Positions 429-15,344 of a DNA stretch of 15,393 nt are shown piece by piece. Source of the DNA: Promethearchaeota archaeon (GTDB lineage Archaea > Asgardarchaeota > Lokiarchaeia > Sigyniarchaeales > SOKP01); assembly GCA_048941265.1 (NCBI GenBank), contig JBHLNT010000002.1:84097-99489 (forward strand). The letters are read 5' to 3'. Below the pieces are notes generated by a model that searched no databases, had not been told where the DNA came from, and was given only the letters and a program-made list of their open reading frames with translations. Every line of letters begins with the position of its first letter. Positions within the stretch are counted from its first letter, which is position 1. Both the position numbers and the translations under genes were made by a program.

Positions 429-597
429 TTTTTCTGCGAAAGTTAGATTTACGCCTTAGTTTTAAAATATAATAATTAGACTTTAGTTTCTATTCTCTTG
501 TTACTATCGTAGAAAAAAGAACTTAAAATAAAATCAAAGATAAAACTAAATATATTATTAATTAAATAAAAAAAATTTAGATGATGTGAAAAAAAAT

Positions 598-2946
598 ATG
601 AGTAAAAAAGGCGCAAAAATTAAAATTGATTCATATAAGGGCCCTATGGGCTCAATCAAAGGATTCGAATTGACTACTGGTAAAGTATCTTACGGCGACG
701 AGACGGAATGGGAACCGATAGGACCTACTCCTGAGCCTCACATTCCTACGCTCCGTCCATGGTTTATGAAGCTGATGGAGCGCTATAAACCTTTCTATAT
801 GCCTATTTGTGACATGTGTTGCCTCTGTACGTATGGTAAATGTAATTTGTCTAAGGGCAGGACTGGTGCTTGCGGTATTAACATGGAAACTCAACAATCA
901 AGAATCGTAGAGATTGCATGTTGTATTGGAGCGAGTTGCCACTCGGCGCACGGTGATCATCTGTTACATTGGTTAAAAGAGAAATATGGCAATGTACCCA
1001 TCAATTTTGGAAATAATATTGCCGTAGAAATGCCTCATACTCGTTTAGTAGTTGGTATGAAGCCAGAAACATTAGAGGATTTAGAAACTGCGATGGAATG
1101 GGTCCACTTTACAATTACGCACCTTTTAGCAGCTGGACATACCGGACAGGAATCAAGTTATTTAGATTACGAAGCAAAAAGTTTCTTAGCAGGTTTAGCG
1201 GATTCTGTTGGAATGGAAATTTCTGATGCAGTTCAAATTGCAGCGTATGGGTTTCCAATGGGAGATCCCAATGTCCCGATTGTGGAATTAGGAATGGGGA
1301 CTATGGATACCGAAAATAAAGCAACTATTTTAATGATTGGACATAATGTAGCTCCTGGGGTTGAATTGGTGGATTATATTAGAGAAAAAGGTTATGAAGA
1401 TAAGCTCGATATTGGTGCAATCTGTTGTACTGCTCATGATTTAACGCGATATTATGATGGAGCAAAAGTTATAGGCTCAATGTCACGACAATTACACTTT
1501 ATTCGCTCAGGATTGGCGGATGTGGTCATGGTCGATGAGCAATGTGTCAACTTAAGAAGTTTTGAACAAGCTCAACTTGTTGGTGCCCCATTTATTGCAA
1601 CAAATGAAAAAAACATGGGGGGGCATCCAGATAGAACAAATGATCCTATTGATGAAATTGTTGATGATTTAGTAAGTGGTCGGGCCCCAAGTGCGTTAAT
1701 TCTCGATCCTATTAAAGCTGGAGCAGTTGCCGCTGAAACTGCAATTAAAGTAAGACCACTCAGAAAGGCCAAGAGTGGAGTTCCAGACGAGCAAGGCTGT
1801 ATTGATATGGCATATCATTGTAATGGATGTGGAAATTGTCAGAGAAATTGTCCAAACGATTTACCTCTTGTAGAAGGAGTTAAATTAGCAAAAGAAGGAG
1901 ATTTTTCAGTACTAGAAGATGTTTTTGATGAATGTTTAGGTTGCGGTAGATGTGAAGCGGATTGTATGAAAGGTGTTTCTCCTTTAACCTTATTAATGTA
2001 TGCGGGACGAGAAAAAATAAGACATGAAAAATTTAATGTTAGAGCCGGTCGGGGGCCAATCATGGACACCGAAATTCGAAATGTAGGAGCTCCAATTGTC
2101 TTGGGGGAAATTCCTGGAATTGTTGCGATAATCGGGTGTGCTAGTTATGGAAAAGAAATTCAAGAATTATATAAAATGGCTGAAGAGTTTTGTAAAAGAA
2201 ATTATATCGTAGTAGTTTCTGGTTGCGGAGCAATGGATATTGGTCTCGTGAAGGATGAAGATGGTAAGACCTTATATGATAGGTTTCCAGGAGATTTTGA
2301 CCGTGGAGGATTAGTTAATGTAGGATCTTGTGTGTCAAATCCTCATATTACTGGTGCCGCTTGTAAAGTTGCTAATATTTTCGCAAGACGTCCATTAAGA
2401 GGAAATTTTGAAGAAATCGCTGATTACATCTTAAACAGAGTTGGCGCATGTGGAGTTGCTTGGGGTGCAATGAGTCAAAAAGCAGCAAGTATTGCAAGTA
2501 TGGCTAATGGATTGGGCGTACCTGCGGTTGTTGGTCCGCATGCTGCTGAATATAGAAGGATGTATATTGGCAAATCATATGAAGAAGACAATTGGAAAGT
2601 TTGGAACGCAAGAGATGGAACTCCCGATCATGTGGTAGGGCCCGGTCCAGAACACTTATTAACAACGGCAGAGACAATTGAAGATGCGATTTGTTTAGTC
2701 GCTAAACTATGTTTAAGACCAGCTGACAATTCAAAAGGAAGAATGATTAAATTGTCTCACTGGATTGACTTAGAACGTAAATATAAGGGAGTTGATTTTC
2801 CAGATGATTTAGAGAAATTTATTCGTGTAGAAGCAGATATTCCGATCAACTTGAAAACTGAAATTCAGGACTTTCTAAAAGAGAAAGGTTGGAAACCAAA
2901 AGAAATTGTTGACCCAACCTTGCTTGAAAGGCTTTGTCACACATAA
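598..2946 (+). CDS. cdhA: CO dehydrogenase/acetyl-CoA synthase (ACDS) complex alpha subunit, archaeal-type Ni-CODH
   Basis: B/D-cluster motif CDMCCLCTYGKC..GACG. C-cluster ligand motifs IGHN, ICCTAHD, DEQC, IIGC, SGCGA and GSCVSN, plus catalytic-Lys motif WGAMSQKA. Two ferredoxin-type motifs (CNGCGNCQRNC, CLGCGRCEADC) are typical of archaeal CdhA, and the C-terminus is DPTLL. ATG 598 is preferred over GTG 586 because an SD-like GATGTGA lies at 583-589. Confidence 0.96.
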   Translation: MSKKGAKIKIDSYKGPMGSIKGFELTTGKVSYGDETEWEPIGPTPEPHIPTLRPWFMKLMERYKPFYMPICDMCCLCTYGKCNLSKGRTGACGINMETQQSRIVEIACCIGASCHSAHGDHLLHWLKEKYGNVPINFGNNIAVEMPHTRLVVGMKPETLEDLETAMEWVHFTITHLLAAGHTGQESSYLDYEAKSFLAGLADSVGMEISDAVQIAAYGFPMGDPNVPIVELGMGTMDTENKATILMIGHNVAPGVELVDYIREKGYEDKLDIGAICCTAHDLTRYYDGAKVIGSMSRQLHFIRSGLADVVMVDEQCVNLRSFEQAQLVGAPFIATNEKNMGGHPDRTNDPIDEIVDDLVSGRAPSALILDPIKAGAVAAETAIKVRPLRKAKSGVPDEQGCIDMAYHCNGCGNCQRNCPNDLPLVEGVKLAKEGDFSVLEDVFDECLGCGRCEADCMKGVSPLTLLMYAGREKIRHEKFNVRAGRGPIMDTEIRNVGAPIVLGEIPGIVAIIGCASYGKEIQELYKMAEEFCKRNYIVVVSGCGAMDIGLVKDEDGKTLYDRFPGDFDRGGLVNVGSCVSNPHITGAACKVANIFARRPLRGNFEEIADYILNRVGACGVAWGAMSQKAASIASMANGLGVPAVVGPHAAEYRRMYIGKSYEEDNWKVWNARDGTPDHVVGPGPEHLLTTAETIEDAICLVAKLCLRPADNSKGRMIKLSHWIDLERKYKGVDFPDDLEKFIRVEADIPINLKTEIQDFLKEKGWKPKEIVDPTLLERLCHT

Positions 2947-4280: not shown

Positions 4281-5486
4281 TTATACGAACATATTTATTA
4301 ATGGTAGTAATTGTTCTCTAAAATACTCCAGTTTAGTATCAAGTAATTCTGGTTTCTCTGAAAGAAGCCATAGATATACGGGAATTTGTAAATCAGAGTA
4401 CTCAAACAATTTCTCTCCCCTTATCGCAATACCATTTAATGGAAGTTCAAGGACTATTGTTCTTTCCCGGATTAACCCAGTTGAATGATGAAAATTGGAA
4501 AGGGTTTGCAGTAATAAAGCAGTGTTGTTGATCAAACTTTCATCTGTAGTATTTTTGGTAAAACTTCCAAAGATTAAGCCATCCATTGAAATAATGCTAA
4601 TCGCTCTTCCTCCAATTTGAGTGCAGAAATCTTCAAGAATATGTTCTACTATTTCAGAAGTCTCAGAAACCTTCATAAGAGCAGCACTGAACATTTGCAT
4701 TATGGTCTCTCTTTGAAAAATTGAGGTATCATAATAATCAATTTTAAATTTATTAAATTCCTCTTGAACGGCGTTAAATTTACTCTTAACGGTATCAACA
4801 TTTTTTTGCCATTGAAGAGTTCTTCGAATATCTTGATCGCTTTTATGAAGAACTATTGCTATAGGTGGATATTCTTTTAATTCATCTAAAACTTTCAGGA
4901 CTTGCTTAAAATAATTAGCTGATTCTGAGAATCTATCTGAATCTTGTGAATCTATTACATATAAAACTAAATCTACTTCACCAAAATATATTTCAGGTTT
5001 AGTAAAATACATTTTTTCACGATATTGGACCTGTCCACCTAAATCCCAGGAAATAATAGGATACCCAAAGAAATCTAATTTTTCACGCTGAACTCCACGA
5101 GTAGGCATCAAATCTTTAATAATTGAAAATTTATCTTCTAAGACTGCGAGTATGGAAGTTTTACCCCCATTATCAAGTCCAATCATAAGGAGTTTCTTTT
5201 GAGCTTTTAGCTGTGCTGTTACTGCTTTTTCAAGAACCTGGGCAATTTTAATCCATTTAGTAACTATTGGCTCTGGAATAGTTCTTATCTCTGGTGGACT
5301 CTCAACATTCAGATTCGCTAGATCCTGAATATTATTAATCCTATGTTCTTTAAGTGCTTCGGCACTTACATTATCAATACCAATGAGAGTGTCTGGACGA
5401 AATCCTAATACTTCTTCAAGTTCATTAATAATTACATTACTCTTAAAAAAATCTTTAATTTTTTGATCTTTATTAATTTCAGACAT
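4281..5486 (-). CDS. Arf/Rag-like small GTPase with an N-terminal HhH-like domain and a C-terminal Roadblock/longin-like domain
   Basis: G1 GLDNGGKTS, G2 PTRG, G3 WDLGGQ, G4 HKSD, G5 TSI. The C-terminal ILEDF..GRAISIISMDGLIFGS is a Roadblock-like helix/beta-beta pattern. The N-terminal LIGIDNVSAEALKEHRINNIQDLA is an HhH-like pattern. Confidence 0.88.
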   Translation of the reverse strand: MSEINKDQKIKDFFKSNVIINELEEVLGFRPDTLIGIDNVSAEALKEHRINNIQDLANLNVESPPEIRTIPEPIVTKWIKIAQVLEKAVTAQLKAQKKLLMIGLDNGGKTSILAVLEDKFSIIKDLMPTRGVQREKLDFFGYPIISWDLGGQVQYREKMYFTKPEIYFGEVDLVLYVIDSQDSDRFSESANYFKQVLKVLDELKEYPPIAIVLHKSDQDIRRTLQWQKNVDTVKSKFNAVQEEFNKFKIDYYDTSIFQRETIMQMFSAALMKVSETSEIVEHILEDFCTQIGGRAISIISMDGLIFGSFTKNTTDESLINNTALLLQTLSNFHHSTGLIRERTIVLELPLNGIAIRGEKLFEYSDLQIPVYLWLLSEKPELLDTKLEYFREQLLPLINMFV

Positions 5487-5778
5487 AGTACATCGGGTAA
5501 AATTTCTTTTTTCTTTCGTATAAGTTTAAGTTAGTAATTTTGTTTAAAAAAATCTTTTATTTTCTAATTTAACTAGATAATAATTGCATTAATTTTTAAA
5601 TAATTCCATTTGAAAATAATTTTGATCATTTACTGTTTTCTGAAAAAAGGATTATAATTCAATAATGAGCTACTTTTTACTTGTTTCACTAAAATGATTA
5701 ATATAAATCTTTATCTTTAAGTAAAAAGATAGTTATTTATAATAGAAATTCGATATAACAATTAAGAATAAACTGGCT

Positions 5779-6984
5779 ATGGTAATTTATTTGTCAGAAA
5801 GACGCCCTGAAAATATTGTCATTTGCATAGATACTTCAAGATCAATGTTTAGAACGGATTACAAACCTAATAGATTAATATGTAGTATAAATGCCACTAA
5901 AAAATTAATTAATGAGAGATTAAGTTTAGACAATTCCAGTGCATTCTCGATTGTCAGTTTTTCAGATAACGCAGAGAAATTAACTGAATTCTCAAATTTA
6001 GAGGCAGAACTCTATGAATCTTTAGAAAACCTCAATTTAGGTGGTAAATCTGCTCTAGGCGATGCATTAGCACTGTCAATTAAACTAGTGATTGAAGAAT
6101 TACGTAAAATTATGGCAAAAACACCTCGAATACTCGTAGTCTCAGATGGAAATTATTCTCAATCTGCCATAGATCCAGTAAAAATGGCCCACCTCGCGCA
6201 AGGTTTAAGCATAAAAATTGACTCATTTAGAATCGGTGAAATGTCTCAGCTTAACATATTAAAAAGATTGAGCGATCTGACTGGAGGGAATTATTATTAT
6301 AGTAATTCTCCAGAGTCATTACTAGACTCCGCTCGTAGATTAGCTGATGACAATTTTAAAGTTCCGAGTTTAAAGTCAGAAAAATTAATTGAAAAACCAG
6401 AATTTCTGAGAAAAATCGCAGCGAATCTTTTAAGGGTTCAAGACCTCACAAAAAGTCAAGAAACAAGAATAAAACAATTAAGGGGTGAAGCTGATTATCA
6501 AAAATGTACAATATGTTTCTCTGAAAATAATCCTTACACCAAAGGCTCTTTTTATCTCACAGGTAGATATTGTCCTAATTGCCAAACACCTTATCATGTA
6601 CATTGTTTAGCATCATGGGCCGCCTCTCAAACAGATCAAATTTTAAGCGAATCTGGTACCTGTAGATGTCCTCATTGCTTTTATTTGCTAAAAATTCCTT
6701 CTGAAGTAACTCAAATCCAAAAATTAAAAATATTAACAGGTAACAGTTCTCAAAAACAAATCGGGATTGGAAAATCTGAGATAGTTCCCGCTGATTTGAT
6801 AAATATTTCTAATCTAGGCGAAGAGGCTCTTTATAAATCATGTCCGGTCTGTCATTTAATATTTGAAGAAGACCAAAAGGTCGTAAGATGCCCTATTTGT
6901 AACGAAATCTATCATGAGCCTTGTTTTAAAGAACTTGATAATTCAATGTGCAAAAATTGTTTTTCTAAACTGCACTTATATTAA
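5779..6984 (+). CDS. vWA domain protein with two C-terminal C4HC3 RING-like zinc fingers (Ssl1/p44- or Rpn10-like vWA)
   Basis: MIDAS DTSRS ... VVSDG and LTGGNYY. Finger 1 is CTIC..CPNCQTPYHVHCLASW..CPHC (6505-6678). Finger 2 is CPVC..CPICNEIYHEPC..CKNC (6841-6960). Confidence 0.88.
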   Translation: MVIYLSERRPENIVICIDTSRSMFRTDYKPNRLICSINATKKLINERLSLDNSSAFSIVSFSDNAEKLTEFSNLEAELYESLENLNLGGKSALGDALALSIKLVIEELRKIMAKTPRILVVSDGNYSQSAIDPVKMAHLAQGLSIKIDSFRIGEMSQLNILKRLSDLTGGNYYYSNSPESLLDSARRLADDNFKVPSLKSEKLIEKPEFLRKIAANLLRVQDLTKSQETRIKQLRGEADYQKCTICFSENNPYTKGSFYLTGRYCPNCQTPYHVHCLASWAASQTDQILSESGTCRCPHCFYLLKIPSEVTQIQKLKILTGNSSQKQIGIGKSEIVPADLINISNLGEEALYKSCPVCHLIFEEDQKVVRCPICNEIYHEPCFKELDNSMCKNCFSKLHLY

Positions 6985-7086: not shown

Positions 7087-7965
7087 ATGTCAGAAAACAC
7101 ATACTATATTTATGGAGATATAAAATTGGGAAGAGGAAATTTTGATTTGCCCCCTGTACTTATCGGGACAATCTTTTACCAAGGGCAAACTATTATAGAC
7201 CGAAAAAATCCTGAGATTTTTGACGTTGAAAAGGCAAAAAAAAGAATAAGTAACCATAAAGCATTAGCTAAGCAATATAAGATTCCAGATTTAATAGAAT
7301 TAAACGCAGACACTCCTGATGCCATGATAAAATACTTGGAATTTTACATAGACAATTTTGGACCTCCTTTTGTGTTAGGAGGTACTTTTGATGCGAGACT
7401 TGCAGGTATTGAGTATTTAAAAGAAAGAGGAATTGGACCTAATGAATATATTTACAACACTATTTCAAATCTTAAAAATAAAAAAGAAGTAGAAGTTATT
7501 CAAAAATATAAAATTGATTCCATAGTCATTTTGATAATTGGCTCTGAAAGTATGACTTCTACACAAAGATATAATTATATTATTCAAAAAAATCAACCCA
7601 ACAATGAAAGTTTACTTGATGGCTTAAAGAGATTAGGTGTCAATAAAGTATGGATTGATGGGGGAGTAATTACAATGGAAAGTTTAGCCCATATTTTAGA
7701 AACACAACGATTAATTAGTGAGTCTTTAAAAATACCTGTAGGGACAGCTCCAAATCTTTATTTGTTTAAATTTTCGTCTCCACGATTAAATCTTAAATTT
7801 CACACACGCTATAGAAGAGCATCCATAATGTTTATTGCATCATGGTATTCGAATTTTATTTTTTATGGTGCTATTGAAGATGCTAAGGAATGTTTTGCTT
7901 CAGCTTCTCAAGCAGTAGAGTTTAAAAACATCATAAAAGAGCATCACATCAAACTTTTTCAGTAA
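7087..7965 (+). CDS. MtrH-family (pterin:corrinoid) methyltransferase, divergent and standalone
   Basis: The N-terminal PPVLIGTIFYQGQTII..FDVEKAK matches the MtrH family pattern. Also AMIKYLEF, YIYNTIS, PVGTAP and FIFYGAIEDA, at the expected length of about 290 aa. Confidence 0.8.
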   Translation: MSENTYYIYGDIKLGRGNFDLPPVLIGTIFYQGQTIIDRKNPEIFDVEKAKKRISNHKALAKQYKIPDLIELNADTPDAMIKYLEFYIDNFGPPFVLGGTFDARLAGIEYLKERGIGPNEYIYNTISNLKNKKEVEVIQKYKIDSIVILIIGSESMTSTQRYNYIIQKNQPNNESLLDGLKRLGVNKVWIDGGVITMESLAHILETQRLISESLKIPVGTAPNLYLFKFSSPRLNLKFHTRYRRASIMFIASWYSNFIFYGAIEDAKECFASASQAVEFKNIIKEHHIKLFQ

Positions 7966-8095: not shown

Positions 8096-9235
8096 ATGAT
8101 CAACAATCAAGATAAAGATCAGATGGAACTTGAAGCTATACAATTAATTGATCAAGCTGAAATATTGGCTAATAAAGGGAAAGGGGAGGAAGCAATAAGC
8201 TATTACGAAAAAGCAGCTCAAATTTATCTAGATTTTGGAAGTTATATAGAATTAGATAGACTTTTTATACGAATAATTGAAATTATTTCACAATTTAAAA
8301 ATCACATCGTAGCAATATATCGACTTAATTCAATCATCAGAAAAACTGAGGATTTACAATTATTTGAGATCTCCGCGAGATTACTGATAGAATTAGGAAA
8401 TATATCATATCAAATGAATGATTGGGAATCTGCTGGAGAAAGCTGGGAAAAAGCCTCCTATTATTTAATCAAAACGGATCCCGAAGAATATGATACTCAA
8501 TCTTGTCATCTTCTATTAAAAGCAGGACAGGCATTTGAACGTTCTCCAATAAGAAAAGATTACGGAAAACGTCTAATTCTTAAAGCGATAATGAAAATTA
8601 ATAAGTTCGATGAGTTATACGAACAAGAAGAAAAACGTGCTTATCATCTAATAAAGAATAAAGAATTTGAAGCATCAGCTAACAAATTCTTCGATATTGC
8701 GACTTATTTTAGAAAAGCTCTCGAAAATTTAAGCAATGCAATAGATGAACAGGCATCTAAAGAAACAATACTTAACGTTAAGGCGAGATTTTTTCATTTT
8801 GTTGCTGAATATCAAACTTTATCTGCACTATGTCTGAAAGCTTCGGAAAATCCTGCTTATAATGAAAAAATAAATGAACTTGCAAAAGATTCCATAAAAT
8901 TATTTAAAGAATCTATTTCACGTTTAAAAGAATATTTATTTCCCATAAAATCCGATTTTGATAAAGAGATTATATTGAGAATAACATTTGATACGATGTT
9001 ATTAACAATCATTCAAGAATTGAGTGGAATAAAAGAAGTTGAGACAATTTATTATCTCTTCGAAAATATAGAAACGAATAAAGTATTAATTACCAAATTA
9101 AAAGAATCTCCTTACTTTAAGATTACAGAAAGCATTAAAAAAATAGGTCTTCAAGAATCTTTGAATAAGCTCTTAAAGGTGCATTTAGGACACTTTGAAG
9201 AAATTAAAAACACACTAATTTCTTACTTCACATAA
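8096..9235 (+). CDS. Alpha-solenoid TPR/SNAP-like helical repeat protein
   Basis: All-helical, with repeated A..Y/W/F.KA motifs: EAISYYEKAAQIY, SAGESWEKASYY, LLKAGQAFE and ASANKFFDIATYF. Confidence 0.7.
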   Translation: MINNQDKDQMELEAIQLIDQAEILANKGKGEEAISYYEKAAQIYLDFGSYIELDRLFIRIIEIISQFKNHIVAIYRLNSIIRKTEDLQLFEISARLLIELGNISYQMNDWESAGESWEKASYYLIKTDPEEYDTQSCHLLLKAGQAFERSPIRKDYGKRLILKAIMKINKFDELYEQEEKRAYHLIKNKEFEASANKFFDIATYFRKALENLSNAIDEQASKETILNVKARFFHFVAEYQTLSALCLKASENPAYNEKINELAKDSIKLFKESISRLKEYLFPIKSDFDKEIILRITFDTMLLTIIQELSGIKEVETIYYLFENIETNKVLITKLKESPYFKITESIKKIGLQESLNKLLKVHLGHFEEIKNTLISYFT

Positions 9236-13971: not shown

Positions 13972-14729
13972 TAGTTTTGTTCTCAACTCATACTTTAATA
14001 TAGTTTTTATCTTCAAGATAGTAATGGAAATTATCATATAAAATATTGATTTATCTATTCAAAAGTAATCTTTGTGTTTTTTTGATACTAATGTATTCAA
14101 TTATATTATTAAGATAGCATTTTCCCTTGTTAAATTCTCCATGATTTAACCGTCTTCTCGTATTTTAGAAATAGACTTAAAAGCGTTCTAATGCCATTTT
14201 ATTAGGACTTAAATTAATAATTTTAGAAAATGTCTTTAAATTAAATAAATGAACTTTTAATTAAATAATATCTTTTTAAACTAAAGAAATCTGCTGCTTT
14301 TCAATTGCTGTAGAAATACATGATTCAATCAAATAAAAATTAAAAAAAATTTAATATTTATTTATAGTTAATAGCAGATTTTAGTGTAATTTAGTTCTAC
14401 TAAAGTATAATGATAGAATCGAAAAATATCTATCTATTAATAAACTGGGATTTAGTATTTGTCCTTTTTTATTTTAAGACTATACAGTCCGAATGATTAA
14501 TATATCTAATTTATCTTTAATAATTAATCTTAAAAATTTTTGTAATTTCGTCATTTTTAGAAAATAATATCATTTAAATTTTTTTGTAATTATTATATTT
14601 ATATAGAAAAAAAATATACAAATATTACTATCGAAAATGTAGCAATAATATTTCGAAAATTAAATGTTTTTGATGGTATTTATTAATTTAAGTAAATAAT
14701 TATTTCAAAATTATTAGGGTGTTAAATTC

Positions 14730-15344
14730 TTGGTAAAAAGAGAAGAAGCTAATGTTTTAACCGTAAGAATAAATAAGGAAATTGATGAATTATTAGAAAA
14801 AGTAAAAGAAAGAAAAGGTACTACAAAGGCTATGCTTATTAGAAACTATTTAGAGATGATAAAATACATATCAATTAACAATGGGTCAATTAGATCTCTC
14901 GATGACCGTAATTTGGTCATTATCAAACGAAAAACATTTAAAAATTATTTAAAAAATTTCGGAGAAGAAGAGCAAATCAGGCAAGGTATAAAATTAGCTG
15001 AATCAATTAATGATATAGCAAGAGTACAAGGAAAGTTAGATGATATAAGCTATAAGTTAGATCTTTGCGAACATTTAGGATTTTTTCCAAAATTCATAGA
15101 TGAGGAAGGTTATATTTTATTTTCTGATAAATTTGGTCCGAAGAAATTTGTTGAGGCTTTCATATATAAACTAATTAATTTCCAACCCGATGATGAGTAT
15201 GACATGAATTTTTCTGAAGAAGGATTGGAAAAATCTAAGGATGTAAGAAAAGATTACCAGAAAAAGATAAATCCTGTTAAAAGAGCAAGTTCTTATTATG
15301 CATTTGAATTTGCTAAAATTCCTGTAGTTGAAGAAGAAGGTTAA
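14730..15344 (+). CDS. Ribbon-helix-helix (CopG/MetJ-like) protein with a C-terminal putative ligand-binding domain
   Basis: N-terminal VLTVRINKEIDELLEKV.ERKGTTKAMLIRNYLE is a beta-alpha-alpha RHH pattern. The start is TTG, and the ~150-aa C-terminal domain is unassigned. Confidence 0.75.
   Translation: MVKREEANVLTVRINKEIDELLEKVKERKGTTKAMLIRNYLEMIKYISINNGSIRSLDDRNLVIIKRKTFKNYLKNFGEEEQIRQGIKLAESINDIARVQGKLDDISYKLDLCEHLGFFPKFIDEEGYILFSDKFGPKKFVEAFIYKLINFQPDDEYDMNFSEEGLEKSKDVRKDYQKKINPVKRASSYYAFEFAKIPVVEEEG

Follow-up and report, generated by a model that had tools for sequence, protein, structure and literature searches.

An Asgard archaeal protein with a vWA domain and two RING-like zinc fingers resembles the TFIIH subunit p44/Ssl1

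Introduction

To our knowledge, XPB and XPD are the only subunits of transcription factor IIH (TFIIH) credited with archaeal homologues, and the core of p62, p52, p44, p34 and p8 is held to be a eukaryotic invention. Within TFIIH, the N-terminal extension of p44 contacts XPB. According to Greber et al. (PMC6422496), p44 consists of this extension, a von Willebrand factor A (vWA) domain, an eZnF and a RING, and binds XPD through loops on the face of the vWA domain that carries the metal-ion-dependent adhesion site (MIDAS). That paper and Radu et al. (PMC5737387) describe binding of p34 through the eZnF and the RING; Radu et al. (PMC5737387) add that the p44 RING is structurally closest to the RINGs of RNF38 and Ark2C, that it binds the p34 vWA domain 'in an E3-RING/E2 like fashion', and that E3 ubiquitin ligase activity has been reported for yeast Ssl1 (cited in PMC5737387). 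Here we describe a gene in a 15,393-nucleotide stretch of a Promethearchaeota (Asgard) assembly (GCA_048941265.1, contig JBHLNT010000002.1, positions 84,097 to 99,489; hereafter the window). Like p44/Ssl1, its product has an N-terminal vWA domain followed, in the same order, by two zinc-binding modules.

The family to which this protein belongs is apparently undescribed. Its public annotation is 'VWA domain-containing protein', and the open literature on Asgard archaea in combination with vWA, RING, TFIIH or Rpn10 (a scope that excludes subscription papers, tables of eukaryotic signature proteins and Burroughs et al. 2011/2012) holds no description of the family or of an archaeal p44-like protein. 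The family is likewise not described in the accessible parts of PMC6222260, PMC9258230, PMC7159879, PMC7016017, PMC12962969, bioRxiv 10.64898/2026.10.28.762692 and bioRxiv 10.1101/2020.10.19.343400. The supplement of PMC12962969 has 25 'von Willebrand' rows, none of them for TFIIH, GTF2H2, Ssl1, PSMD4 or Rpn10, and the four supplementary files of PMC10307638 contain no occurrence of the terms searched for.

We find that a p44-like vWA-RING-RING architecture exists in archaea, and that the protein encoded in the window is, within what was compared, the closest prokaryotic protein to p44/Ssl1 by profile, predicted fold and domain order. The reading we prefer, with a probability of about 0.55, is that it is a cytosolic RING-type E3 or adaptor that binds a partner by its MIDAS-bearing vWA domain, and that it belongs to an Asgard-restricted family of paralogues that, of the prokaryotic proteins compared, resembles p44/Ssl1 most. 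Whatever its ancestry, the family is large, highly conserved and uncharacterised, and its members are probably RING E3s that bind substrates in those archaea most closely related to eukaryotes. We know of very few E3-substrate relationships in Asgard archaea.

A conserved protein with a vWA domain and two zinc fingers

The open reading frame (ORF) at window positions 5779-6984 (+) is intact and encodes 401 aa from an ATG. The first codons (5779-5793) offer a second candidate start, TTG 5791, which is residue 5 and the point at which the homologues, a database record of 397 aa with 100% identity, and the ESM Atlas record all begin; the true product may therefore be 397 aa. An initial annotation, made from the sequence alone, had quoted three vWA motifs and two C4HC3 fingers. 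All are present in the translation: ICIDTSRSMFRTDYKPNRLIC, AEKLTEFS and LTGGNY, followed by both fingers, the first with HVHCLASW, of the HxxCLxxW type. The protein is most likely soluble and cytosolic, with three modules, a vWA domain and then two binuclear cross-brace fingers of the RING/PHD class (Table 1).

The family around this protein is sizeable. At E<=1e-3, 314 database proteins match it. The best 120 of these are 58-100% identical to it over ~99% of the length and 365-403 aa long, bar one 266-aa fragment, and the names among them are all 'VWA domain-containing protein' from Asgard metagenome-assembled genomes (MAGs). A near relative is encoded by 112 reference genomes, across which this near subfamily is ~60% identical. 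Given these matches and genomes, the ORF is not a chance one. An exhaustive search of representative sequences gave 776 matches at E<=1e-3, with the full-length architecture (~390-418 aa) retained down to ~23-25% identity, below which generic vWA proteins appear. In every search made, the named sources of the family were all Promethearchaeota.

To describe conservation across the family we used an alignment of 31 diverse members spanning 21-64% identity. The two fingers are its most conserved parts. Conservation extends to the helical linker that joins the vWA domain to finger 1: F209 and R211-K225 are almost all invariant, both in 16 and in 30 near members, and A214 and L217 hardly vary among the 31 diverse members. 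In the AlphaFold2 (AF2) model this linker contains helices at residues 207-213 and 225-235.

The predicted fold ranks p44/Ssl1 first

The AF2 model, built with the 31-sequence alignment, has a predicted local distance difference test (pLDDT) score of 87.9 and a predicted template-modelling (pTM) score of 0.73. Most of the vWA part lies at pLDDT 93-97, and only residues 1-4 and 321-332 are disordered. In a Foldseek comparison of this model with the PDB, ranks 1-24 were all p44/Ssl1, with alignment over the full length. For full-length p44 chains the alignments spanned 314-413 columns, with E-values from 2e-19 to 6e-14. Most of them had a root-mean-square deviation (rmsd) of ~25 A, which means that the domains are placed differently relative to one another than in p44. 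Chains of p44/Ssl1 that comprise the vWA domain only had TM-scores of 0.84-0.87, an rmsd of 2.2-2.5 A and E-values between 3e-13 and 3e-11. Because full-length p44 is matched with an E-value some six orders of magnitude better than the vWA-only chains, the finger region adds to the match. Among other vWA folds, Rpn10 reached TM 0.74-0.79, and BatB and 4jdu reached 0.68-0.69 with an rmsd of 6 A. At the level of a single sequence, too, human TFIIH p44 was the best match among solved structures (E 1.4e-6).

Two points reduce the weight of these rankings. When the TM-scores of vWA-only matches are normalised to the length of the query, the gap is small (p44 0.41-0.42, Rpn10 0.37-0.40, 4fx5 0.39), and the PDB contains few prokaryotic vWA structures, which biases any ranking towards eukaryotic proteins.

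Affinities of the vWA domain

Pfam models match the vWA domain at residues 12-181, with VWA_2 at 58.7, Ssl1 (PF04056) at 41.3, VWA at 39.5 and Tfb4 at 26.0 bits. Thus the Ssl1 model (profile positions 2-157 of 193) not only passes its cut-off of 27 bits but outscores the generic VWA model. It matches 20 of the 31 diverse members at E<0.01. The Tfb4 model, whose cut-off is also 27 bits, gives weak matches in 10 of the 31, the best at 26 bits. As controls we took the 22 best prokaryotic vWA proteins outside the family, which are of the Bat type. Eight of these matched the Ssl1 model, at 16.6-28.0 bits and always at less than half of their VWA score, and a single one matched Tfb4.

Searched against the PDB, the 31-member profile found Rpn10/PSMD4 first (E 5.7e-18, 68.5 bits, profile positions 6-168) and human p44 second (E 3.1e-16, 62.8 bits), followed by the bacterial vWA protein 4rck (E 1.2e-13, 54.2 bits), BatB (E 2.2e-9, 40.2 bits), yeast Ssl1 (E 4.6e-9, 39.2 bits) and BABAM1 (E 1.1e-8, 38.0 bits). 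A profile of the 22 Bat-type controls scored 4rck at 222, BatB at 149, Rpn10 at 59.6 and p44 at 38.1 bits. Exchanging the Bat-type profile for the Asgard one adds 24.7 bits for p44 and only 8.9 bits for Rpn10; by this measure of sequence similarity, the Asgard family appears distinctly nearer to p44, and slightly nearer to Rpn10, than the Bat-type vWAs are. Since the Bat-type profile itself matches Rpn10 at 59.6 bits, the link to Rpn10 is not specific to the Asgard family.

The same kinship is visible in individual motifs. The p44 segments named in the initial annotation are indeed there: in a HMMER alignment, human p44 has DLKPNRLTC, AEKLTELS and TGGTY opposite the motifs of the window protein, and D.KPNRL.C, AEKLTE.S and TGG.Y are common to both. 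The related start of the Rpn10 vWA domain is there as well, with human Rpn10 showing DNSEYMRNGDFLPTRL at the matching place and both proteins sharing a D-x-S...P-x-RL start. Zinc fingers are absent from Rpn10, which has ubiquitin-interacting motifs towards its C-terminus. The C-terminal half of the Asgard protein, by contrast, consists of the two fingers, and the Pfam scan of the window protein reported no match to a ubiquitin-interacting motif.

However, the Bat-type vWAs are clear homologues as well. With hhalign, the Asgard and Bat-type profiles align at a probability of 100% and E 9.6e-39, over 182 columns with 28% identity. Both groups have an intact MIDAS, and the Bat consensus also reads D.S.SM...DYKPxRL, so the D.KPNRL motif is not p44-specific. 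In pairwise comparison with P0001, Bat-type proteins score 50-60 bits and p44 31 bits; the best NCBIfam model is BatA (46.9 bits, cut-off 380); and by ESM Atlas features the vWA part is nearest to generic bacterial vWA clusters (0.91), with the eukaryotic Ssl1 cluster at rank 17 (0.89). Together these observations weigh against an exclusive link to p44, and the p44 affinity of the vWA domain appears, on sequence, to be graded rather than exclusive.

They also raise the alternative that the protein is an ordinary Bat-type vWA that has acquired generic fingers and serves in adhesion or assembly in a metal-dependent way, with no tie to ubiquitin or TFIIH, and that its likeness to p44 reflects shared ancestry within this vWA branch and the composition of the PDB. 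We find this doubtful. Proteins of the BatA/BatB type, the aerotolerance operon type (PDB 3ibs, 4jdu, 4rck), have N-terminal membrane helices, with BatA_N matched in 9 of the 22 controls at E<0.01; they lack fingers, and their fold match is weaker. The window protein has no N-terminal hydrophobic segment in its sequence and no BatA_N match in Pfam, and its BatA score lies far below the cut-off. The added bits for p44, the purely Asgard origin of the named family members, and the fingers themselves, with their RING-type features, strong conservation and contribution to the p44 fold match, all argue in the same direction.

The proposal in the initial annotation, an Asgard relative of the p44/Rpn10 clade working as a ubiquitin E3, is therefore borne out in part, the attribution to Asgard archaea being right. 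The Ssl1 cut-off, the top profile ranks of Rpn10 and p44, the top fold rank of p44 and the RING-like character of the fingers in the fold search speak for it, whereas the clear homology of Bat-type proteins, the shared KPNRL motif and the failure of the Atlas to single out Ssl1 do not. The converse outcome that it had considered, a grouping of the vWA domain with generic BatA/CoxE-type domains, is not what the score and fold rankings give, yet homology with Bat proteins is clear (E 9.6e-39). By these similarity rankings, as distinct from a tree, we place the domain in a Bat/Rpn10/Ssl1 branch, leaning to its eukaryotic members.

The MIDAS is intact, a point that had been raised as a caveat. Residues D18, S20, S22, S91 and D123 are all present and are invariant across the near subfamily. 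In the 31 diverse members, D18 is kept in 30, S/T20 in 29, S22 in 26 and D123 in 27, and the site decays in divergent groups of paralogues.

In one group of paralogues (P0144, P0149, P0152 and P0279-P0286; ~415-418 aa) the N-terminus is extended, the MIDAS is degenerate and finger 2 is followed by a conserved GI(Q/E)RIV tail at the C-terminus. In a second (P0151, P0161-P0180 and P0274) the vWA domain contains ~8 inserted residues, and the MIDAS is likewise incomplete.

Two binuclear fingers with RING-type features

Finger 1 has the spacing CxxC-x18-CxxC-x4-HxxC-x20-CxxC (C243..C300) and finger 2 the spacing CxxC-x12-CxxC-x4-HxxC-x8-CxxC (C355..C394). All eight ligands of finger 1 are present in 31/31 diverse members. 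In finger 2 this holds for seven of eight ligands, and the remaining one, C382, is kept in 30/31, the exception being a change from Cys to His. Both fingers thus keep an eight-ligand binuclear zinc pattern, for which the fold matches suggest cross-brace geometry.

Finger 1 carries further conserved residues, I245 (31/31), W280 (31/31), L303 (31/31) and P298 (29/31), and its helix begins at H273-C276 in the AF2 model. We take Ile245, Trp280 and Pro298 to be the RING triad for docking a ubiquitin-conjugating enzyme (E2), with Ile after ligand 1, Trp on the helix and Pro after ligand 7. The Trp four residues past ligand 6 on this helix presumably marks a RING rather than a PHD position. Because the triad is kept in finger 1, and its equivalents in finger 2 vary, we assign E2 docking to finger 1. 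On this pattern of conservation, finger 1 probably docks an E2 and finger 2 probably has a protein-protein role.

In Pfam searches across the family, the matches of the fingers to RING, PHD and C1 models are all weak. At E<0.01, zf-RING_2 matches 26 of the 31 diverse members and Prok-RING_1 matches 17. In some relatives finger 2 exceeds RING cut-offs (zf-RING_2 at 33.2 and 29.6 bits; zf-ANAPC11 at 31.5, cut-off 25), and finger 1 exceeds that of SLX1_C (28.6 bits, cut-off 27.2), with zf-RING_2 and FANCL_C matches too. The related vWA protein P0224 passes the Prok-RING_1 cut-off (30.3 bits). Against the PDB, the finger matches of the diverse family profile reach significance only with RING E3 domains, the RING-H2 proteins Arkadia (4e-8), RNF165 (2e-6) and RNF38 (1e-5) at finger 2, with RLIM falling within 4e-8 to 1e-5.

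The fold search favours RING domains. A model of the fingers only (residues 236-401) found as its best matches the RINGs of RNF38, RNF13, RNF165 and RNF12 solved with E2s, at probabilities of 0.97-1.0. Against p44 it covered both fingers (133-140 columns, probability 0.8-0.96, E ~1e-2). Hence the other outcome that the initial annotation had named as contrary to its proposal, a fold of the PHD or zinc-ribbon kind, is not what the fold search gives.

Several observations nevertheless weigh against a RING E3. The docking triad is a consensus pattern as opposed to a computed interface. In the window protein itself, all RING models stay under their curated cut-offs, finger 2 scoring 27.1 bits with Prok-RING_1 (cut-off 29.1) and 23.1 bits with zf-RING_2 (cut-off 27.3). 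PHD-family models match too (C1_1 in 14/31, PHD_NSD in 12/31 and PHD in 11/31 members at E<0.01), with PHD_NSD above its cut-off in some members, for example P0122 (32.2 vs 23.9 bits). A finger profile of the near subfamily gave marginal PDB matches only, of which the PHD of Jade-1 was the top one (0.01) and the RLIM RING reached 0.046. The finger-only model has a pLDDT of 69.3 and no Foldseek match at E<=1e-3 (best 8e-3). The ESM Atlas feature search of the finger part gave 0.75, under chance level.

The fingers might accordingly be PHD- or C1-like readers of a peptide, lipid or nucleic acid, and the protein a recruitment adaptor devoid of ligase activity. Their C4HC3 order and CxxC-x4-HxxC spacing are PHD-typical in both cases, and the PHD_NSD and Jade-1 matches fit this alternative as well. 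We judge it unlikely: PHD and PZP folds were matched by the finger-only model at a probability of just 0.13-0.15, as opposed to 0.97-1.0 for RING-H2, significance is restricted to RING E3 domains when the diverse profile is used, and the Trp of finger 1 occupies what would be the RING position.

How do the fingers compare with named RING E3s? With the RING-H2 E3s (Arkadia/RNF111, RNF165/Ark2C, RNF38, RLIM/RNF12) they share the best sequence and fold matches for isolated fingers and, in finger 1, the presumed Ile/Trp/Pro triad; they differ in being C4HC3 rather than C3H2C3, in their PHD-like spacing and in the weak E-values obtained for the window's own subfamily. With Prok-RING_1 (PF14446) and the small archaeal RING E3s of operon-encoded ubiquitin systems, they share the Prok-RING_1 match of finger 2. 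Unlike these, finger 2 stays under the cut-off and forms part of a fusion with a vWA domain and another finger, and by the ORFs and flank clusters scanned its gene is not in an operon with genes for E1, E2, ubiquitin-like or JAB proteins.

Likeness to p44, proposed function and possible origin

Beyond domain order and motifs, p44 and the Asgard protein are alike in that the p44 RING (PMC5737387) and the Asgard fingers both resemble the RINGs of RNF38 and Ark2C. They differ in other respects. The MIDAS of human p44 is decayed (T for the last Ser, the Asp of SDG missing), whereas the Asgard site is intact. The middle module of p44 is an eZnF, where the Asgard protein has a binuclear C4HC3 RING-type finger, and the C-terminal RING of p44 is C4C4, where Asgard finger 2 is C4HC3; the initial annotation had cautioned that the ligands are not identical to those of p44, and the contrast is that of two C4HC3 fingers with C4 plus C4C4. 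The Asgard protein lacks the N-terminal extension, with its vWA domain beginning at about residue 10-11 and the p44 matches starting from chain residues 45-85. Although a zinc module occupies the position equivalent to the eZnF, in a collinear full-length fold alignment, the sequence alignment to p44 there is insignificant. More generally, alignments to the PDB, with a single sequence and with the profile, gave no significant sequence match of the finger region to p44, which also counts against a p44 affinity. The Pfam model of the C-terminal C4C4 (TFIIH C1-like) domain had no match reported in the Pfam scans of the family, and the resemblance there is one of fold only. Finally, L174 and T175 of p44, reported to be required for XPD binding, align to Q128 and S129; only D178/D132 is common, and the DP pair to which it belongs also occurs in the Bat consensus.

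These differences bear on the possibility that the protein is an archaeal functional counterpart of p44 in TFIIH. It would then be a scaffold without catalytic activity, binding and stimulating XPD by its vWA domain and holding a p34-like paralogue by its fingers in a repair or transcription complex. The best fold matches, the collinear alignment and the Ssl1 score are what one would expect of such a protein, as are the existence of several groups of paralogues, in some of which the MIDAS has decayed as it has in p44 and p34, and the higher frequency of weak Tfb4 matches in the family than in the controls (10/31 vs 1/22). In p44 itself, XPD is met by the MIDAS-face loops of the vWA domain and p34 by the eZnF and RING (PMC6422496, PMC5737387). 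Nonetheless we think this very unlikely, in view of the missing N-terminal extension and C-terminal model match, the C4HC3 finger in place of the eZnF, the intact MIDAS and the replacement of the XPD-binding residues; moreover, neither the window nor the recurrent flank clusters of related loci contain XPD, XPB or another repair or transcription gene. We find no support for a role in TFIIH. Nor is the protein established as a true member of the p44 family, with its vWA domain agreeing with that family and the N-terminal extension and C4C4 RING lacking.

The RING-type E3 or adaptor that we prefer, for which we infer metal binding, E2 docking, E3 activity and the role of finger 2, could act as follows. 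The MIDAS face of the vWA domain would capture a partner or substrate, an acidic side chain of which would complete the coordination of the metal. Finger 1 would dock an E2 for ubiquitin-like conjugation via the Ile245/Trp280/Pro298 surface. Finger 2 may be a protein-protein module, for self-association or for binding another vWA domain, as the p44 RING does on p34. The protein is small, soluble-looking and confidently modelled, and assays of ubiquitylation and XPD binding in vitro are practical.

As to origin, any ancestor-descendant relation to p44 is putative, the claim resting on similarity and fold rankings rather than on a tree. In its wider form, the ancestor of those eukaryotic proteins that combine a vWA domain with zinc fingers would have the Asgard family as its surviving relative in archaea, with p44/Ssl1, p34/Tfb4 and perhaps the Rpn10 vWA domain deriving from an Asgard vWA-RING E3 already split into MIDAS-intact and MIDAS-decayed paralogues. 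We regard this scenario as possible but improbable. If it were true, the contact between the p44 RING and the p34 vWA domain would preserve, as a fossil, a surface once used for self-assembly of an E3 or for docking an E2. Having the domain order of p44, and p44 as its best fold match, the conserved Asgard protein would be a testable candidate for the origin of part of the TFIIH core, and is of interest for eukaryogenesis. Such an origin would tie that core to the ubiquitin system, given the E3 activity reported for Ssl1 in yeast.

Distribution and paralogues

The scan of reference genomes used an alignment of the near subfamily, and the loci fetched are therefore those of near relatives. From the 112 genomes, 80 loci were kept for counts of loci and neighbourhoods. 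All 80 come from archaeal MAGs, 70 with an Asgard taxon and 10 labelled 'uncultured archaeon'.

Class labels of these loci (Thor-, Hod-, Odin- and Hermodarchaeota; for example L003, L004, L052 and L074) are mixed with one another in the gene tree, where they lie at branch lengths of ~0.05, and the loci have a common gene order. The labels are either unreliable or drawn from differing naming schemes, and because of this mixing the 79-row clade counts here as a single lineage, from which we claim no Asgard-wide distribution.

Beyond the near subfamily, the gene tree has at least six deeper groups. A profile of 16 distant members retrieved 21 proteins, and the named ones among them are all from Promethearchaeota, including Ca. 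Lokiarchaeum ossiferum; the deeper groups are therefore probably paralogues within Lokiarchaeial genomes. Three longer relatives (P0153, P0157 and P0159; 619-686 aa) have no recognisable extra domain.

Genomic surroundings

Table 1. Features of the window discussed in the text, in window coordinates.
Feature	Position	Strand	Basis
cdhA (CO dehydrogenase/acetyl-CoA synthase alpha)	586-2946	+	NCBIfam equivalog, 1060 bits
Rag/Gtr1- and Arf-like GTPase, divergent neighbour	4281-5486	-	Pfam Gtr1_RagA 81 bits, Arf 75.7 bits; PDB matches
AT-rich divergent intergenic region, common with the GTPase gene; presumed promoters	5487-5778	.	Sequence
vWA-RING-RING gene, 401 aa (start ATG 5779) or possibly 397 aa (start TTG 5791)	5779-6984	+	ORF list and translation
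vWA domain, ~residues 10-195, Rossmann-like alternating strands and helices	5806-6363	+	Pfam, AF2, Foldseek
MIDAS motif DxSxS (D18-T-S20-R-S22)	5830-5844	+	Plus S91 (6049-6051) and D123 (6145-6147)
Conserved helical linker from vWA domain to finger 1 (residues 205-236, FLRKIAAxLLRVQDLTK...)	6391-6486	+	Alignments, AF2 model
Finger 1, binuclear C4HC3, RING-type: C243 C246 C265 C268 H273 C276 C297 C300, with I245, W280, P298	6505-6678	+	Alignment, model
Inter-finger linker: helix 308-319, then low-confidence 321-332 (pLDDT <50)	6679-6840	+	AF2 model; variable in alignment
Finger 2, binuclear C4HC3: C355 C358 C371 C374 H379 C382 C391 C394	6841-6960	+	Alignment, profile
MtrH-like methyltransferase, co-oriented downstream	7087-7965	+	Pfam, NCBIfam
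Tetratricopeptide repeat (TPR) protein, co-oriented downstream	8096-9235	+	Pfam, NCBIfam

Most of the 80 loci share the arrangement cdhA+, GTPase-, vWA-RING+, MtrH+, TPR+, with the GTPase in 78, the MtrH-like gene in 78, the TPR gene in 71 and cdhA in 65. The divergent GTPase and vWA-RING genes are separated by a median of 209 bp (77 loci). We considered these neighbours as a clue to function and rejected them: the 80 loci form one shallow clade in which the whole block is syntenic, so that adjacency reflects synteny and is not proof of a functional link. Among the 13 window ORFs scanned and the 16 recurrent flank clusters scanned there were no genes for E1, E2, ubiquitin-like, JAB, XPD or XPB proteins. 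The genomic context therefore gives no support to a link with ubiquitin or TFIIH, which is a point against the E3 reading as well. Co-folding of the vWA-RING protein with the neighbouring GTPase scored 0.00 in both runs (30 matched genomes each, run without controls), and we make no claim of binding.

The GTPase has 401 aa, with an N-terminal extension of ~95 aa and a C-terminal part that aligns with RagA/Gtr1 past the G domain. Its best PDB relatives are the 'GTP-binding protein' chains 8yl2_A (profile E 7e-44) and 8zla_A. Full-length copies are 64-93% identical to one another and always divergent from the vWA-RING gene. In related loci the syntenic block includes two more small GTPases. One, found in 51 loci, is Arf-like and 351 aa long, of which 170 aa are an N-terminal extension; the other, found in 15 loci, is Ras-like and 213 aa long. 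The block also has a V4R-like protein in 52 loci and two conserved proteins without a Pfam match, one of 499 aa in 39 loci and one of 588 aa in 38 loci. The coordinates of these extra genes of the block are L015:1788-2840, L008:15140-15778, L064:1367-1996, L047:362-1858 and L027:8660-10423.

The methyltransferase at 7087-7965 belongs to the MtrH family; it scores under all equivalog cut-offs and is nearest to the MtgA/MtrH subfamily. Together with cdhA, it is consistent with a host metabolism of the Wood-Ljungdahl type. The TPR protein (379 aa) has one N-terminal TPR and a borderline SNAP-family match (25.2 bits, cut-off 25), the rest of it being without a match.

The window has a GC content of ~30%, and its further genes encode a short-chain dehydrogenase, a B12-radical SAM enzyme, a nucleotidyltransferase, a GHMP kinase and an ArsR-type regulator. 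Rfam and tRNA scans of the window gave no match. Positions 14001-15000 are very AT-rich (GC 0.209 vs ~0.30 elsewhere), upstream of a 204-aa ORF (14730-15344) that has no family match and is kept in 44 of the 80 loci.

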